Shown here: positions 7,660-15,079 of the stretch, in pieces | How positions within the stretch are numbered: the stretch's first letter is position 1 | Layout: the number at the start of each line of letters is the position of its first letter | Assembly: GCA_045632405.1 (NCBI GenBank) | Contig: JAZQWO010000030.1 | Coordinates: 23,769-87,768, forward strand | DNA length: 64,000 nt | Reading direction: 5' to 3' | Source of the DNA: Eubacteriales bacterium | Lineage (GTDB): Bacteria > Bacillota > Clostridia > Oscillospirales > CAG-272 | Notes under the pieces: generated by a model | Database searches by the model: none | What the model was told of the DNA's origin: nothing | The model's input: only the letters and a program-made list of their open reading frames with translations | Program-made: the position numbers and the translations under genes

Positions 7660-9743
7660 GTAAGCCAATAGCTAATCCCCGCGGTCCTAAAATGGCGCGC
7701 CCTGACCGCCGTGCAAAGAAGGGCACGTTCAAAAGACTTATAACCACTGTGATGCAGTTTTTCAAAAAGCGCTTTGTTTTGGTTTTTGCCTGTATTCTTA
7801 TAAGCGCATTGGTAACTGCATTGCCTGGTATTTTCCAGCAGGATGTTCTCTCCTCTGCCCAGGACGGTATTTATCTTGCAAATCCCGAAAAAATCACTGT
7901 TTCTGAGGAAGTGCGCGCAGAGTTCCCCGGTCTTACAGACGAGGAGCTTTTGGTAAAGGAAAAGGAAATTTTGCTGTCAAAATACAACTTGCCCGCAAAC
8001 ACCTTTGAAACAAATGACCTTTCTACAATTGAGGCACTTGATATTGTGCTTCCTTCCATTGTAAAAACAGTTACACTGTTAATTGTAATTTATATACTTG
8101 GTCTTATCGCTTCCTTTGTGAAAACAAGAACAATGGCGGTAATTACACAAGGCTTTTTGCACAAAATGCGAAACATTATGTTTGGCAAAATGCAGACCTT
8201 GCCAATCAAGTATTTTGACACTCACAAGCACGGCGACATAATGTCATATTACACAAACGATATCGACACTCTGCGTCAGCTCATTTCACAATCTTTGCCA
8301 CAGATTATTACCTCTTGCGTTATACTTGCAACTGTGCTTTTCATTATGCTCTATTTCAGCCTTTGGCTAACCCTCGTTGTGCTCTTTGGTGTTGTGCTTA
8401 TGCTCATTACATCCAAGAAAATCGGCGGTGGCGGTGCGAAATACTTTGTTAAGCAGCAGCAGGCACTTGGTAAATGCGAGGGCTATATCGAGGAAATGAT
8501 TAACGGTCAGAAGGTTGTTAAGGTATTTAACCACGAGCCAAAGACCAAGGAAGAGTTTGACAAGCTCAATGAACAGCTATGCTCAGACTCTACAACAGCC
8601 AACAAATATGCAAACACACTTATGCCAATTATCAACAACCTGGGTCATATTCTCTATGTTCTTCTTGTTCTGGTTGGCTCTATGCTTATATTCTTTAATG
8701 TTCCAAACATTTCCTTCTCGGGAAAGCCAATTGACGTTACAATTTTGATTCCGTTCCTTGGCATGTCAAAGCAGTTTACTAACAATGTATCTCAGCTCTC
8801 CCAACAGGCAAACGCCATTGTTATGGGTCTTGCAGGTGCGGACAGAGTGTTTGAGCTGATTGACGAGCCTAGCGAGGCAGACGAGGGCTATGTAACTCTT
8901 GTAAATGCCACCTACAACGAAAACGGCGAGCTTGTTGAAAGCGAAAAGCGCACAGGCATGTGGGCATGGAAGCATCCACACTCCGACGGAACTGTTACCT
9001 ACACCAAGCTGACGGGGGATGTCAGAATGAACGAGGTAGACTTCGGCTATACTGATGAAAAGATAGTTTTGCACGATATTTCACTTTACGCTGAGCCGGG
9101 TCAGAAAATCGCCTTTGTAGGCGCTACGGGTGCTGGTAAAACTACTATTACCAACTTGATTAACCGCTTCTATGATATTGCTGACGGTAAAATCCGCTAT
9201 GACGGAATAAACATCAACAAAATCAAGAAAAGCGACCTTCGTCGCTCCCTCGGTGTTGTTTTGCAGGACGTTAACCTGTTTACAGGTACAGTTATGGACA
9301 ACATCCGCTACGGCAAGCTTGATGCAACAGATGAGGAATGTATAGCGGCAGCAAAGCGCGCAAACGCACATTCCTTCATTACAATGCTCCCTGACGGCTA
9401 CAACACTGTTTTAACAGGTAACGGCAGTGGCTTGTCACAGGGACAAAGACAGCTTATCTCTATTGCACGAGCGGCGGTTGCAGACCCACCTGTTATGATT
9501 CTTGACGAGGCAACATCCTCGATTGACACAAGAACAGAATCAATTGTACAGGCAGGTATGGACGCGCTTATGCAGGGCAGAACCGTATTTGTTATTGCGC
9601 ATAGACTATCAACCATTAAAAACTCCGATGTTATTATGGTGCTTGATAAGGGTAGAATTATCGAGCGTGGCTCACACGACGATTTGATAGCGCAAAAGGG
9701 CAAATACTATCAGCTTTACACAGGTGCTTTTGAGCTTGAATAA
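7656..9743 (+). CDS. ABC exporter permease/ATPase half-transporter (consensus-site subunit), heterodimer partner
   Basis: 695 aa. ATGA overlap with the upstream gene. Walker A GATGAGKTT, Walker B VMILDEATSSID with the canonical Glu, signature degenerate (LSQGQRQ). A long ~80-aa loop lies between TM1 and TM2. Confidence 0.9.
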   Translation: MSKPIANPRGPKMARPDRRAKKGTFKRLITTVMQFFKKRFVLVFACILISALVTALPGIFQQDVLSSAQDGIYLANPEKITVSEEVRAEFPGLTDEELLVKEKEILLSKYNLPANTFETNDLSTIEALDIVLPSIVKTVTLLIVIYILGLIASFVKTRTMAVITQGFLHKMRNIMFGKMQTLPIKYFDTHKHGDIMSYYTNDIDTLRQLISQSLPQIITSCVILATVLFIMLYFSLWLTLVVLFGVVLMLITSKKIGGGGAKYFVKQQQALGKCEGYIEEMINGQKVVKVFNHEPKTKEEFDKLNEQLCSDSTTANKYANTLMPIINNLGHILYVLLVLVGSMLIFFNVPNISFSGKPIDVTILIPFLGMSKQFTNNVSQLSQQANAIVMGLAGADRVFELIDEPSEADEGYVTLVNATYNENGELVESEKRTGMWAWKHPHSDGTVTYTKLTGDVRMNEVDFGYTDEKIVLHDISLYAEPGQKIAFVGATGAGKTTITNLINRFYDIADGKIRYDGININKIKKSDLRRSLGVVLQDVNLFTGTVMDNIRYGKLDATDEECIAAAKRANAHSFITMLPDGYNTVLTGNGSGLSQGQRQLISIARAAVADPPVMILDEATSSIDTRTESIVQAGMDALMQGRTVFVIAHRLSTIKNSDVIMVLDKGRIIERGSHDDLIAQKGKYYQLYTGAFELE

Positions 9744-9779
9744 CAAAAAAAATCAGACCATTTGGTCTGATTTTTTTGT
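9744..9779. terminator. Bidirectional rho-independent terminator
   Basis: A8-ATCAGACC-attt-GGTCTGAT-T7 sits between the convergent stops at 9743 (+) and 9780 (-). Confidence 0.8.
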
Positions 9780-10226
9780 TTAATCGAGTACTGAAAGCTC
9801 TGAGTCCTCTGCAATTCTTGGAATCACTTCTCCTTCAAAGCTTGTTATATCCTTTGTGATGTAGTCAAGCACCTCAGGCTCACATATGGCAAATGTCATT
9901 TTATTTTCATTTTGCGTAACTGTTATTATTCCTTGCTTTTTGCGGTGTATTTTCAGCGCCTCATCCATATCATAAAGGCAAGCCATGTCGGAATAAACAA
10001 TCAAGAAGCAGCTTTCAAGACTGCCTCTTATTTTTTGAAGCTTGTCCTGTGTTCTCTCCTTCGCAAAGCTGTTTGCGGTTATTATTTCAATATCATTTAT
10101 TTGATAATAGCTTCTGTCAATATCTATTTCACCGTCGCAAAACACCACTATTCTGTCATAGCCGTATGCCACCAAATGATTTATAATTTTCTCTGCTCCT
10201 GCGCTTTTCAGCAAAATCGCTCTCAT
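9780..10226 (-). CDS. Small NTP-transferase-like protein with degenerate/deleted nucleotide-binding loop
   Basis: 148 aa from ATG 10226 (SD AAAGGAG). MRAILLKSAG-AEKIINHLVAYGYDRIVVF and FLIVYSDMACLYDMDEALKIHRKK resemble sugar-phosphate nucleotidyltransferases (aIiLAGG.GTRL...; fLvl.gD......dl..ll..H). The GxGTRL loop and about 20 following residues are missing. Confidence 0.45.
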   Translation of the reverse strand: MRAILLKSAGAEKIINHLVAYGYDRIVVFCDGEIDIDRSYYQINDIEIITANSFAKERTQDKLQKIRGSLESCFLIVYSDMACLYDMDEALKIHRKKQGIITVTQNENKMTFAICEPEVLDYITKDITSFEGEVIPRIAEDSELSVLD

Positions 10227-10296
10227 AATTTTCACATCTCCTTTTCTATTATTTTTTACCGAAAAGTGTATAATATTCCTCACATTTTATATTATG

Positions 10297-10316
10297 ATAT
10301 GCACACTTGTGCATAT
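10297..10316. promoter_or_regulatory. Perfect 9-2-9 palindrome (candidate operator) upstream of the NTP-transferase-like gene
   Basis: ATATGCACA-CT-TGTGCATAT. The arms are exact reverse complements. It lies 71-90 nt upstream of ATG 10226, next to a CATAAT -10-like hexamer on the minus strand. The 2-nt spacer is too short for an RNA hairpin loop. Confidence 0.4.
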
Positions 10317-10325
10317 TTAAATCGA

Positions 10326-10372
10326 AGAAAAAGCAAGAATATTGGACTATTGCCCTTTATTCTTGCTCTTTT
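10326..10372 (-). terminator. Probable terminator after the CotH gene
   Basis: AGCAAGAAT (10332-10340) and ATTCTTGCT (10359-10367), with an 18-nt loop and T-runs on both strands. Confidence 0.45.
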
Positions 10373-10377
10373 TTAAA

Positions 10378-12459
10378 TTATTTTTTCTTTCTTGTCAGCA
10401 GCACCACAACGGTCACTGTTGCAATAATTGCAATAACTCCCGCAACAGATGCTATGATAATCAAGACTGTAACTGTACTGTCATCTTTATTCGAGCCTTG
10501 ATTGCCACTGTTATTTTGGGCAGGCACGCTTGAATCCGTTGACGGCACAGAATCAACTGTCGAATTTGAATCAATTACAGGATTTGAGTCAATCACAGTG
10601 CTTGAATCAACCGGTGTTGAGTCTACATCTTGACTTGAATCTACTGTTATATCTGTGTCGATTGTGGGAGCGGACTCAGGTAATGAGCTGATTGGTGGTT
10701 CGGGTAATACAGGTTCTTTTTCTGTAAAGCTGCGCTGGCGGAGCTGCACGTTACATTCCCAATCTGTTGCGAGCCAATTAGCTCTTGCCTCTATATGCTC
10801 GCAAAGATAGCCGATTACTGTGGTTTCGTCCTCGTCATAGCCCTTTGAGTAGTAGCCATCAACAAAGTTGAATATTGGGGCTTGTGACTGCCATCTGTCA
10901 TAATGTGTACCGTCATAATATACAGGCCACTTGGAATAATTGTCAGAGTGCCATCTTGCTCTTTCCATAAAGATTGATTGACCGATTTCCTCAACCAACT
11001 GACTAACATAACCGCCTGCATCTATCATATCAAAAATTGCATCATATACTCTTGCAAACTCTTGACTCACCTTTTGGTTAAACTCAGCGTGCTGAGTAAG
11101 TCCTGCCCATATGCTTCTTCCCCTTGCCCAGTAGCCCTCGGGATTTGAAGCGCCGTTTTTGTGAATGTTACCAAGGGTATTATCACAATCCCAAAGCGGT
11201 CCCTTATAAATCTTTGATACCTGACCGTTTTTGTCAACATCCTTATAGAAGTACATGCTTGACGAGCCTGCATCATAGTTTCTGCCCAGCTCTGCCACAA
11301 TGTAAGCATAAACAAATGAGTCAATATCTACATATTCGGTATAATGCTTACCGAGGCGGTTATAGCCGTTTTTCGCCATCATTGCTTCTTCCATTTCGCC
11401 AAAAAGGGTGGCAATATACTCTACCTGCTCCTTTGAAGCATATTCAGGAGATTTAACAACATAGTGACTGCCGTTTTCGGTAATGAAGTAGCAAAGCTCA
11501 CCGCTCCAGTAGTTATTATCAAGCTCAATGAGATAACCGCCTGTAATATCGGCAGGATTTTTAACTCCCGGGATGTAGCTATATTCTGTAATAATTGTAT
11601 TTGGAATACCGCCTGTTACCTTAACTGCGGTTTCGGAATAAGTGGGATTTAATGCATCGTTTTCCTTTTCAAGCTCAAAAATATTAAGTCTTGCAGAGCT
11701 GATATTCACCTTTTCGCAAAGGAGATAAACACCGTAATACTCGCCGTCAAGGAACAAATCAACCATTTGGAACTCTGTGGTGCGCATACCCAGAAGCTCA
11801 CCGATTTTGTACATAATACTGTTACGGATTAAGGATTGGTCATCATAGTTGGCAAGAAGAAGCCATGTCTTGCTCTCTCCCATACCAAATATATCGGTTT
11901 TTGTGTCAAGCTTGATTTGAAACGGCTTTTTTGCGTATGCCTTGGTGGCATTGCCGCGCACCTTAATTTCGCTATTGTATCTGTAATCTACATACTCGTA
12001 TGAGCCGTCCTTATTTACAACGGTAACAAATGCCTGCTCGTCCTTGGCATTGTTTTTGGTTATATAGGACTCTCCCAATGTGGTTTCTATGTGAACGCTC
12101 GGCAATTCAGATGCAAAATGGAAAATCAACATATTTGATTTGCCGTTAACACGAAGGTTGAGTATATACGCTTCTTGCCCTGAGGGGGTAACATTTTTAA
12201 ACGGTGTCAAATCAAGAACTGTGCCGCTTGGCAGATTGATTCTTTGTCCTTGCAAATTTTCGTATTCAATTGATTTTGTTCCGTCGTGAGCAATTTTTAC
12301 ACTGCTTGGTGACACGTAAGATGGTAAATAGAAGTCTCCGTTCTCTGCCTTAAACTCTCTTTGGTCATTTGCCACAACATAAATATCTGCCGCACTTATT
12401 GACAAAGCAAGTATGATTATTGTCAGCAACACAAAAAACGCAAAGCATATTTTTTTCAT
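10378..12459 (-). CDS. CotH kinase family protein, secreted and C-terminally membrane-anchored
   Basis: 693 aa from ATG 12459 (SD GGGGAG), starting 1 nt after the upstream stop. Signal peptide MKKICFAFFVLLTIIILALSISA. CotH-type blocks FQIKLD, SLIRNSIMYKIGELLGM, VDLFLDGEYYGVYLLCEKV, GGYLIELD and GPLWDCDNTLGN. The C-terminus has a VDS/IDS-rich stalk, then TM helix VLIIIASVAGVIAIIATVTVVVLL and RKKK. Confidence 0.8.
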   Translation of the reverse strand: MKKICFAFFVLLTIIILALSISAADIYVVANDQREFKAENGDFYLPSYVSPSSVKIAHDGTKSIEYENLQGQRINLPSGTVLDLTPFKNVTPSGQEAYILNLRVNGKSNMLIFHFASELPSVHIETTLGESYITKNNAKDEQAFVTVVNKDGSYEYVDYRYNSEIKVRGNATKAYAKKPFQIKLDTKTDIFGMGESKTWLLLANYDDQSLIRNSIMYKIGELLGMRTTEFQMVDLFLDGEYYGVYLLCEKVNISSARLNIFELEKENDALNPTYSETAVKVTGGIPNTIITEYSYIPGVKNPADITGGYLIELDNNYWSGELCYFITENGSHYVVKSPEYASKEQVEYIATLFGEMEEAMMAKNGYNRLGKHYTEYVDIDSFVYAYIVAELGRNYDAGSSSMYFYKDVDKNGQVSKIYKGPLWDCDNTLGNIHKNGASNPEGYWARGRSIWAGLTQHAEFNQKVSQEFARVYDAIFDMIDAGGYVSQLVEEIGQSIFMERARWHSDNYSKWPVYYDGTHYDRWQSQAPIFNFVDGYYSKGYDEDETTVIGYLCEHIEARANWLATDWECNVQLRQRSFTEKEPVLPEPPISSLPESAPTIDTDITVDSSQDVDSTPVDSSTVIDSNPVIDSNSTVDSVPSTDSSVPAQNNSGNQGSNKDDSTVTVLIIIASVAGVIAIIATVTVVVLLTRKKK

Positions 12460-12460
12460 A

Positions 12461-13651
12461 TTAGTTCTCCCCATACCTTTCGGAATAATAGTCACGGTCA
12501 ATTGTCAAAACCAAATTGTACAGTGGGTTTATGTCCTTGATTCTCTTAGAAAGAATTGAAGAAATTTCATTGTTGGTAAGAACCATTTCGTCAGTTATGC
12601 TGATATCAAAAAGAACATTTGTATGCGTTACTCCCTTAACAATGCGAAAATCGTGCATTGACATAGGGTGAGAATATTCCTCAGACAATTGATTGATAAT
12701 GTCAAGGCATTTCAGTCTGAGATCGTTTGTCTCAGGGTCGGACACGGAAATAGGGTCCATATGGATAACCAAATTTATGTTTTCATTTTTAAGAAAATCA
12801 GCCTCAATGTTATCAATAAGGTCATGGCTTTCCATAATGTCGCCGTCTGCGTCAATTTCAACGTGAACGGTTGCAAAGCATCTGTTAGCGCCGTATGAGT
12901 GAATAACAAGATCGTGAATGCCCAAAACGCCGTCATAGCTCTTGATTTTTTGAATAATACTGTGGGTAAGCTCCTTATCGGGCGCTTCGCCAATCAAGGT
13001 ATTCGAGGACTCCGCTACAAGCTTAATACCCATCACCATAATGTAAACGGAAATAAGTATGCCTATAACGCCATCTGTATATGGGCCTGTATATGGGGTG
13101 ATAATCATACCCACAACAACGGCAGCGGTTGCCACAACGTCACTGATGCTATCAATGGCGGTGGCACGCAGAGCACGTGAGTCAATGTGCTTGCCTAACT
13201 TGAAGTTTAAAATAGCAACTATTATTTTGACAATAACAGTGGATGCCATAACAATAATAGATACCAGATTATAGCTTTGCGCCTCTGCCTCACCTGTCAG
13301 CTTACTGATAGATGTTGAGAGCATTTCAAAGCCAAGGAAGGTGATGATAATGGAAATGAAAAGACTGCACAAATATTCCATACGTGCGTGACCGTATGGG
13401 TGATCCTTGTCCGCAGGCTTGCCCGAAATTGTATATCCAACAACGGTTAAGATGTTAGAGCCTGAGTCGGACAAATTGTTGAGTGAGTCGGCAATAATGG
13501 AAATACTGCCGAAAATAAGACCAAACACCAGCTTAACCGCAAACAAAATGGCGTTTGCCACGATTCCGACAAAGCCGGCAAATCTACCAATTCGTACACG
13601 TACCTCGGTATTTTCCTTATCGTGGTAATTTTTAATTAACTTTTCTATCAT
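12461..13651 (-). CDS. Cation diffusion facilitator (CDF) family transporter, Asn/Asp-type transport site
   Basis: 396 aa, six TM helices plus a C-terminal cytoplasmic domain. TM2 has IADSLNNLSD (N-xxx-D where Zn-CDFs have H-xxx-D) and TM5 has AIDSISD (D-xxx-D). ATGA overlap with the upstream gene. Confidence 0.85.
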   Translation of the reverse strand: MIEKLIKNYHDKENTEVRVRIGRFAGFVGIVANAILFAVKLVFGLIFGSISIIADSLNNLSDSGSNILTVVGYTISGKPADKDHPYGHARMEYLCSLFISIIITFLGFEMLSTSISKLTGEAEAQSYNLVSIIVMASTVIVKIIVAILNFKLGKHIDSRALRATAIDSISDVVATAAVVVGMIITPYTGPYTDGVIGILISVYIMVMGIKLVAESSNTLIGEAPDKELTHSIIQKIKSYDGVLGIHDLVIHSYGANRCFATVHVEIDADGDIMESHDLIDNIEADFLKNENINLVIHMDPISVSDPETNDLRLKCLDIINQLSEEYSHPMSMHDFRIVKGVTHTNVLFDISITDEMVLTNNEISSILSKRIKDINPLYNLVLTIDRDYYSERYGEN

Positions 13652-14274
13652 ACTTCCTCTTTAACCGCGATAATATCCTTTGCATAAGGTAATGACATAA
13701 TCCAGTCGCACATTGTGTGCCATTCTGCTAGCTTATGCGTTCTTCTTGCGTAGTAAATGTTTATAAGTGTTTCGTAATTAAATGTGCAGGTGCGCATTTG
13801 ATTATAGCTTGAAGGAAGAAGCTGAATCATATCGTGCCAATAGGCTTTATCCTTTGTTTCGACATATTTGAGTCTTGCCTGCTCAAGATATTCAATTACG
13901 TTATCAAGAACCGCCAAAGCACCCTCTGTCATCCTGTCACAGCTGAAGTCTGCACGTTCAAACTCCTTTGAGTGGATTTTGTGCATTGTGGATGTGGAGT
14001 TGGCAACGGTTGCAACCTTATATGTATCGTACTCCTTCCACCAATAAAGAGGTGCGGTGATATCAACGGAAACAAAAATCTGACGGAGATATTTCCTGTG
14101 GTCAGAGCCAGCCTTTGCAAGCTTTTTAGCCAAGGCAAGGTCATTTTCACCAAGAATATAATTGCCACCCTCGTCATAATAGCTATCGCTTCTCGCCCAG
14201 GAATTGAGTGGGTTACGTGCTCCTCTTATAGCGTTTTCAAGGTTCATAACGCTGTATCTTTCAATTTTTATCAT
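13648..14274 (-). CDS. ThyX-fold-like protein lacking the RHR catalytic signature (function unknown)
   Basis: 208 aa from ATG 14274 (SD GGAGG 5 nt upstream; the ORF-track start at 14286 is TTG). GSDHRKYLRQIFVSVDITAPLYWWKEYDTYKVATVANSTSTMH aligns by eye to the T. maritima ThyX segment [41 protein letters not shown]. RHR-X7-S is replaced by TYK-X7-T. Confidence 0.5.
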   Translation of the reverse strand: MIKIERYSVMNLENAIRGARNPLNSWARSDSYYDEGGNYILGENDLALAKKLAKAGSDHRKYLRQIFVSVDITAPLYWWKEYDTYKVATVANSTSTMHKIHSKEFERADFSCDRMTEGALAVLDNVIEYLEQARLKYVETKDKAYWHDMIQLLPSSYNQMRTCTFNYETLINIYYARRTHKLAEWHTMCDWIMSLPYAKDIIAVKEEV

Positions 14275-14306
14275 AATTTCCTCCAAAAAAATTCGGTATT
14301 AAATAT

Positions 14307-14335
14307 ATAATATCATATAATAGTTGCTTTGTCAA
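14307..14335 (-). promoter_or_regulatory. Sigma-A-like promoter of the ThyX-like/CDF/CotH operon
   Basis: On the minus strand: TTGACA (14335..14330), 17 nt, TATTAT (14312..14307). Confidence 0.55.
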
Positions 14336-14431
14336 CAGAACAAGGTTACGCCCATAAATTTTGTGCTTGTGTATATTTTTTAGTTTTGAAGTAAATAATA
14401 CCCTTGCGAACCAACTGAAAGGAGCTTTTAA

Positions 14432-15079
14432 ATGAACGCACAAGACAAAAAATTCTCAAGAATTTTCTATTTAACCTTAGCAGTAATACTAACTGTCACT
14501 GCAATTATAATCATAGCGGTGGCGGTAGCAAGACGAAATCAACCATTACCAAATACAGACACTCCCTCAAGTATTTTGGACACAAATCCCGACACAAGCA
14601 CAGGCGTAGAGGAAGAGGAAAATGTATCGTTTGGTCTTCCCTTGGCGGAATGTACTCTTGATATAGATTACAGTGACACCGTTTTGGTGTTCTCCCCAAC
14701 TATGTCAGACTACCGAGCGCATTTAGGTATAGATTTACGCGGTGAAATCGGTCAAGAGGTAATGGCGGTTGCAGACGGTGTTGTGAAAAATATTTGGCAA
14801 GACCCTTTTATGGGCACATGTGTATCTATTGAGCACGATAAAAACACCATCAGCTATTACAAAAACCTTGACCCTGTGGTTAAAGAAGGGCTTGTAATAG
14901 GCACTGCCGTTTCCAAGGGTGATGTTATTGGAGCTATTGGCGAAAGCGCAATGAACGAGGTGGCGCAGGACCCACATCTTCACTTTGAGCTAAAGGTAAA
15001 CGACAAGCACGTTGACCCAAAGGACCATATAAAGCTGCCAACACCAGAGGTAACACCTGACAGCGAGGGAAACAAGTAA
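14432..15079 (+). CDS. M23/LytM family metallopeptidase with N-terminal membrane anchor
   Basis: 215 aa. TM helix IFYLTLAVILTVTAIIIIAVAV. M23 motifs HLGIDL and DPHLHFEL. Confidence 0.8.
   Translation: MNAQDKKFSRIFYLTLAVILTVTAIIIIAVAVARRNQPLPNTDTPSSILDTNPDTSTGVEEEENVSFGLPLAECTLDIDYSDTVLVFSPTMSDYRAHLGIDLRGEIGQEVMAVADGVVKNIWQDPFMGTCVSIEHDKNTISYYKNLDPVVKEGLVIGTAVSKGDVIGAIGESAMNEVAQDPHLHFELKVNDKHVDPKDHIKLPTPEVTPDSEGNK

Follow-up and report, generated by a model that had tools for sequence, protein, structure and literature searches.

In a 64,000-nt stretch of Clostridia DNA (contig JAZQWO010000030.1; 'the window' below always denotes this full stretch), three genes of the minus strand, within 10322-14335, encode a protein with the fold of the thymidylate synthase ThyX (gene 1, or P1), a CDF transporter and a CotH-family kinase-like protein. 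These genes probably constitute a genuine operon of the vegetative type, assembled stepwise in a single uncultured gut lineage of Clostridia (Oscillospirales-like), and not a conserved three-part machine. The ThyX-like family to which gene 1 belongs is the most unusual part of this triad and its best lead. The operon comprises the following features, all on the minus strand:

14307..14335, sigma-70-type promoter, TTGACA-17 nt-TG-extended TATTAT, read directly in the sequence
13648..14274, gene 1 (P1), 208 amino acids, ThyX-fold protein without the ThyX motif (phrog_6721; AlphaFold and Foldseek)
12461..13651, predicted CDF exporter of the YiiP/FieF type, 396 amino acids (PF01545, PF16916, TIGR01297)
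12464-12760, C-terminal extension of the CDF, about 95 residues past ZT_dimer (residues 300-396)
10378..12459, CotH-family kinase-like protein, 693 amino acids, predicted type I membrane topology (PF08757 and structural model)
12388..12459, predicted signal peptide of CotH, residues 1-24, with MKK, a hydrophobic core and SAA before D at the cleavage point, conserved in 12 orthologues
10771..11967, kinase-like domain of CotH, residues 165-563, with NYD (D396) and WDCD (D426) (Pfam region)
10480..10707, disordered Ser/Thr/Asp/Pro-rich stalk of CotH, residues 585-660 (predicted local distance difference test, pLDDT, below 50 over 585-664)
10381..10479, predicted C-terminal transmembrane helix of CotH with RKKK stop-transfer, residues 661-693 (helix 661-691 in the model)
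10322..10371, intrinsic terminator, 14-bp stem with an inner 4-bp stem, then a U-run (RNA fold)

Architecture and distribution of the operon

The signals found in the window delineate a single predicted operon, with one promoter, coupled junctions and one terminator, from which gene 1, the CDF and CotH would be co-transcribed. Indeed, the promoter (TTGACA at 14335-14330 and TATTAT at 14312-14307, with a 17-nt spacer) is the top sigma-70-like match within 9700-14700, at 11 of 12 positions. The TGA of gene 1 and the ATG of the CDF overlap as ATGA (13651-13648), and the stop codon of the CDF (TAA, 12463-12461) is followed 1 nt further on by the ATG of CotH (12459), the Shine–Dalgarno sequence of the latter (GGGGAG) being located inside the 3′ end of the CDF gene. 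The promoter and both junctions had been pointed out in a preliminary description of this DNA, and all are present as claimed there. Downstream of CotH, the terminator hairpin (10328-10371) has a free energy of −27.8 kcal/mol (z = −6.2), which none of 200 shuffles equalled. The distance between gene 1 and the CDF remains between −4 and +6 nt in the 13 closest genome loci, and that between the CDF and CotH is 1-16 nt in three further loci; since this tight spacing recurs in related genomes, it is not a chance feature of the window. Base composition displayed no anomaly suggesting horizontal transfer, and the PADLOC search for defence systems returned no relevant match.

The triad forms one monophyletic clade of 13 species-level genomes plus the window, and was additionally retrieved in three metagenome contigs and in three further loci, where CotH identity goes down to 42%. 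The latter three loci are all flanked by AP_endonuc_2 and a divergent M23 gene, and two of the three by a MocA-type oxidoreductase, the window having the same flank. As these flanking genes are syntenic too, general gene-order conservation explains the triad as well as selection does. A 2.9-kb metagenome contig (JAEIGA010228097.1) displays 97-100% protein identity to the window over the three genes, from which it follows that this organism, or an almost identical one, was also sampled elsewhere.

In no other, independent lineage were the three genes found together. The gene 1-CDF pair is encountered without CotH in approximately 12 further genomes (gaps of 37-224 nt), and this pair is older than the triad. 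The nearest CotH homologues outside the lineage (36-43% identity, full length) lie in unrelated genomic contexts, with neither a CDF nor gene 1 within 5 kb, and no CDF is present near CotH in 77 of 80 CotH-anchored metagenome loci. Gene 1, for its part, has many other partners. The synteny by which the preliminary description proposed to judge the triad is thereby confined to one lineage, and the notion of a three-gene functional module is weakened by this lack of co-conservation elsewhere, while being possible within the lineage.

The CDF transporter and the CotH-like protein

The CDF matches PF01545 (3e-43, 148 bits), as anticipated, together with the ZT_dimer family PF16916 (57 bits), and reaches 206 bits on TIGR01297, for which the cut-off is 82; its best solved relative is YiiP (2e-27). 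On alignment to E. coli YiiP (2qfi), ADSLNNLSD and AIDSISD are placed on D45/D49 and H153/D157, so that transport site A of the CDF would consist of N58, D62, D167 and D171; the His/Asp ligands of site B and of the C-terminal part are retained as well. This ND-DD quartet is unique to a bacterial manganese-selective clade of CDFs (Barber-Zucker 2017, PMC5703985), in agreement with the significance initially given to the motif, and the CDF is therefore predicted to export Mn2+. An assignment to the MntE type at the equivalog level, by contrast, failed: the protein is below every NCBIfam equivalog cut-off, with 103 bits versus 500 for MntE (NF052621) and somewhat higher scores for MamM (135) and FieF (132). 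Thus, the window CDF shares with MntE/MneP-type CDFs (clade 1) and YiiP/FieF the CDF fold, the ZT_dimer domain and the conserved His/Asp sites, and with the manganese clade the ND-DD quartet, but differs from these transporters in its scores and in its extra C-terminal region. It further differs from MntE/MneP in having no manganese riboswitch upstream; indeed, searches of the window and of 12 related gene 1-CDF loci detected no riboswitch of any class, manganese included. The C-terminal extension has no Pfam match, and CDF orthologues are similar in overall length (388-404 amino acids). A duplicated cytoplasmic domain (i.e. a second C-terminal domain) was considered for this extension and rejected, as it displays neither similarity to that domain nor a Pfam match.

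CotH matches PF08757 over the whole model (positions 1-322; 2e-41, 143 bits), as the preliminary description had expected. In its AlphaFold model (pLDDT 79.5), residues 25-585 are folded, and the only significant PDB matches are to B. cereus CotH (5jd9/5jda; E 3e-10, TM-score 0.62, target-normalised). An N-terminal helix at residues 2-20 corresponds to the signal peptide, and the C-terminal transmembrane helix with its RKKK anchor is conserved in 9-10 of 12 orthologues. As most orthologues keep the signal peptide, stalk and anchor, all noted beforehand, and the model shows them too, the predicted topology stands, i.e. an outward-facing protein anchored in the membrane. At least seven orthologue clusters of this lineage (approx. 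785-790 amino acids) carry a C-terminal thioredoxin/redoxin (TlpA-like) domain, which fits this outward location, such domains being typical of extracytoplasmic proteins. The stalk varies in length and sequence among orthologues. It contains a loosely repeated (V/I)DS, and orthologue stalks are also Ser/Thr/Asp-rich and unalignable; it could be a substrate of the adjacent kinase domain or a simple linker.

In B. subtilis CotH, D228 (in NYD) is catalytic and D251 (in WDYD) binds metal (PMC7821199). In an alignment at motif level only, these residues correspond to D396 and D426 of the window protein, invariant in 42 orthologues, and N233, five residues past the catalytic Asp, to S401, likewise invariant in these 42 sequences. 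Hence the two Asp of the catalytic set looked for are retained and the Asn is not, and kinase activity is plausible. Overall, the protein resembles the Bacillus spore-coat kinase in its Pfam CotH match throughout, its fold and its NYD and WDxD motifs. It differs in that identity is only 14% and N233 is replaced by Ser, in the addition of a signal peptide, a stalk and a membrane anchor, in an extra β-rich N-terminal domain of approximately 140 amino acids, in the thioredoxin-like domain of some orthologues, and in its predicted position outside the cell and not in the spore coat.

In the stepwise assembly that we propose, gene 1, a member of a ThyX-derived family whose other contexts point to pyrimidine or dNMP metabolism, would simply head the transcript. 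The CDF would act as a YiiP-like antiporter exporting Mn2+ via its ND-DD site. CotH would be exported by the Sec pathway, its signal peptide being cleaved after SAA, and its flexible stalk and C-terminal anchor would then keep it at the outer side of the membrane. Co-expression may let exported Mn2+ reach CotH incidentally, and we infer that a dedicated functional link among the three genes is absent. Several points weigh against this reading. CotH is reported to prefer Mn2+, with which the ND-DD site of the CDF fits suggestively. The adjacency of the CDF and CotH and their tight spacing persist while CotH identity falls to 42%, and selection for co-expression, not inertia, could be the cause of this persistence. 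Moreover, the replacement of N233 by Ser401 means that catalysis by CotH is not guaranteed.

The first of two alternatives, put forward in the preliminary description, is that Mn2+ export by the CDF serves specifically to load CotH, the kinase co-expressed with it and exported, at the outer side of the membrane. The 1-nt junction with the Shine–Dalgarno sequence inside the CDF gene, the adjacency in every lineage locus examined and the manganese-type site all speak for it, and a precedent exists in B. subtilis, where MeeF and MeeY, both TerC proteins, metalate Sec-exported manganese enzymes (PMC10550928). The likeness is one of proposed mechanism, a membrane manganese exporter supplying an extracytoplasmic enzyme; TerC proteins belong to another transporter family than CDFs, serve many exoenzymes and are not operon-linked to a client. 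We nevertheless regard this dedicated supply as unlikely. Only one lineage has the pairing, and in it the flanks are syntenic too; the nearest CotH outside this lineage has no CDF within 5 kb (nor do most of the CotH-anchored loci have one nearby), the gene 1-CDF pair predates CotH, no manganese riboswitch was found in the window and the 12 related loci, and there is no evident ATP source for an extracytoplasmic kinase. The anatomy of the unit as first described is thus borne out, and the feeding of metal to CotH, which rests on adjacency in one lineage, is not. If true that the CDF metalates CotH, this would be the first operon-encoded transporter-client pair for the metalation of an extracytoplasmic enzyme, and would offer a handle on the role of exported bacterial CotH kinases.

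In the second alternative, the operon would be related to sporulation, with CotH directed either to the spore surface or into the intermembrane space of the forespore and the CDF adjusting metals during sporulation. It was on spore coats that the CotH family was defined (PMC7821199), and the host belongs to the Clostridia. Against this, the Bacillus CotH has neither the signal peptide nor the membrane anchor of the window protein, no sporulation genes adjoin the operon, and its promoter is a near-consensus one of the sigma-70 type, in which sigma-E and sigma-K promoter types are not recognisable. Such a role consequently appears improbable, even more so than dedicated metal supply.

Gene 1 and the ThyX-like family

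Gene 1 exhibits no NCBIfam match and no Pfam match even at E = 10, so that the Thy1 (PF02511) scan by which its fold was to be verified returned nothing. In PHROGs, it matches phrog_6721 (unknown function) at 8.6e-69. Its AlphaFold model, built on 70 diverse family members, reaches a pLDDT of 95.4, and the top 50 PDB matches retrieved with Foldseek are ThyX without exception (TM-score 0.60-0.70, E approx. 1e-7, 14-20% identity); among viral structures, uncharacterised gut-phage proteins come first and phage ThyX next. At the sequence level, neither gene 1 alone nor the profile of the 70 sequences found a ThyX in the PDB, and hhalign of gene 1 versus T. maritima ThyX aligned residues 43-81 only. 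Pfam Thy1 is weakly touched by 16 of the 70 diverse relatives (best 9e-7), and the homologue from phage phiCTP1 scores 23.8 bits versus a gathering score of 24.8. As sequence searches missed ThyX, structure prediction and an unfiltered hidden Markov model (HMM) alignment were needed. From the predicted structure and these weak matches, we consider it established that gene 1 has the fold of ThyX and descends distantly from it, which upholds the fold first attributed to it though Pfam models do not see it.

Aligned with T. maritima ThyX (sequence checked versus PDB 1kq4) by unfiltered HMM, gene 1 displays the following correspondences (ThyX residue first):

R78, T84
H79, Y85
R80, K86
S83, T89
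S88, T94
R90, T96
Y91, M97
R174, R177 (kept)
H178, H180 (kept)

The RHRxxSxxxxSxR motif, which provides flavin and deoxyuridine monophosphate contacts, is thus absent from gene 1, where T84-Y85-K86...T89...T94-S95-T96-M97 is found instead. Among these replacements, near-invariance across the family holds for T84, Y85, T89, T96 and M97, but not for K86 and T94. No residue of the ThyX motif figures in the near-invariant set of this region (T84, Y85, T89, N92, S93 and S95-H98). The family also has a conserved set of its own, namely R20, N21, S25, W26, D30, D45, K61 (within H59-R60-K61), R64 and E184, together with the motif N92-S93-x-S95-T96-M97-H98 (NSxSTMH), all invariant or nearly so. Gene 1 accordingly resembles ThyX (Pfam Thy1 PF02511; T. 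maritima TM0449, PDB 1o26) in fold, in size, in the retained equivalents of R174 and H178 and in its genomic company, which includes ribonucleotide reductase, dUTPase, MazG and nucleoside monophosphate (NMP) kinase in phages and folA and tmk in bacteria. It differs in its low identity, its lack of Pfam or NCBIfam matches, the absence of RHRxxSxxxxSxR and its own conserved residues. Given that the ThyX signature has been replaced, gene 1 is not to be filed as ThyX.

The family is very large: clustering at 90% identity gave more than 8000 scoring clusters, and 3775 of the 50%-identity clusters had E ≤ 0.001. The best 120 of the 90%-identity clusters are all annotated as 'hypothetical protein' and all come from Clostridia, and no description of the family was found in literature searches. 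Genomic context was taken from the best 80 genome loci, each spanning approximately 12 kb. Across these loci, which are labelled with several Clostridia families, contexts are strikingly varied despite a protein identity of 72-94%. The gene downstream of gene 1 is a CDF in 25 loci. In 13 others, it is DHFR/folA (PF00186, 4.8e-45), directly downstream with a gap of 3-78 nt; these folA-linked loci form one monophyletic clade, mainly labelled Lachnospiraceae, and the position right before DHFR is the place usually held by thyA. Two loci of the folA clade have an NfnAB-like oxidoreductase pair after DHFR. Thymidylate kinase (tmk) and guanylate kinase (gmk) are downstream in one locus each, and other genes, recognised from their sequence and presumably pth, nadE, serC and more, occupy this position elsewhere. 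In Pseudoruminococcus-like genomes, gene 1 lies between proB and proA (gaps of 23 and 2 nt), an arrangement seen in four loci, as though it had been inserted into the proline operon.

Relatives of gene 1 are also encoded in at least 570 stretches of IMG/VR viral contigs. Neighbours were counted in the best 80 of these, within 4 kb and on the strand that carries gene 1, except for the Gmk-like kinase, which was sought by tblastn in the position directly downstream:

MazG, 31 of 80 loci
DUF3310, 21 of 80 loci
NrdD, 18 of 80 loci
NrdG, 16 of 80 loci
dUTPase, 7 of 80 loci
Gmk-like kinase directly downstream, 5 of 80 loci

In none of the 80 viral loci, which reach up to 10 kb on either side of gene 1, was a ThyA, ThyX or DHFR found. 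The complete 100-kb genome of Enterocloster phage PMBT24 (OQ326496.2) encodes a dUTPase, a class III ribonucleotide reductase, a deoxynucleoside monophosphate (dNMP) kinase and a gene 1 homologue, and neither annotation nor tblastn revealed ThyA or ThyX anywhere in this phage. ThyA and ThyX were likewise not found in the window or in the 80 genome loci, although the short span of the latter means that this says nothing on whole genomes.

Neighbours of this kind are those normally met around thymidylate synthases or enzymes that modify dNMPs, and the contexts of gene 1 elsewhere gave no hint of a metal or kinase link. These nucleotide-type neighbourhoods indicate that gene 1 is most likely a gene of nucleotide metabolism (pyrimidine or dNMP) that heads this particular transcript by chance. 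The role of the ThyX-fold protein, which the preliminary description had left unexplained, thereby finds a suggested setting; a functional link to the CDF and CotH is unsupported. We tentatively propose, as a somewhat doubtful extension, that the family represents unrecognised ThyX-derived enzymes of pyrimidine/dNMP metabolism. In many gut phages, gene 1 may fill the thymidylate-synthase slot, as no ThyA or ThyX was found within up to 10 kb on either side in modules with ribonucleotide reductase, dUTPase, MazG and NMP kinase, and, the flavin motif of ThyX being lost, it may use a cofactor chemistry unlike that of ThyA and ThyX, or make a modified nucleotide. That gene 1 is instead an ordinary but divergent flavin-dependent thymidylate synthase would agree with its fold, with the weak Thy1 matches of its relatives and with the folA, tmk and phage nucleotide-metabolism neighbourhoods, but is highly improbable given the lack of any PF02511 match, the substitution of T, Y, K, T, T and M for R78, H79, R80, S88, R90 and Y91, respectively, the near-invariance of T84, Y85, T96 and M97 among these replacements, and a family profile that finds no PDB ThyX by sequence.

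The ThyX-like family is in our view the larger point of this analysis, as it comprises thousands of clusters and hundreds of viral stretches that no Pfam or NCBIfam model covers, and as its members fold like an enzyme that is a major antibacterial target, yet lack the catalytic motif of that enzyme. The reaction of gene 1, once worked out, could bring to light a new chemistry of thymidylate or of modified nucleotides in gut bacteria and the phages that infect them.

Genes adjoining the operon

Divergently from gene 1, a gene for a membrane-anchored M23 peptidase is located at 14432-15079 on the plus strand (PF01551, 1.6e-21), and 20 of the 80 genome loci likewise have an M23 peptidase gene upstream of gene 1. 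On the other side, 3′ of the CotH terminator, a small gene (9783-10226, minus strand) encodes 148 amino acids without a Pfam match, has its own Shine–Dalgarno sequence and is followed by a strong terminator at 9746-9777. A homologue of this small gene is found downstream of CotH in eight related loci.

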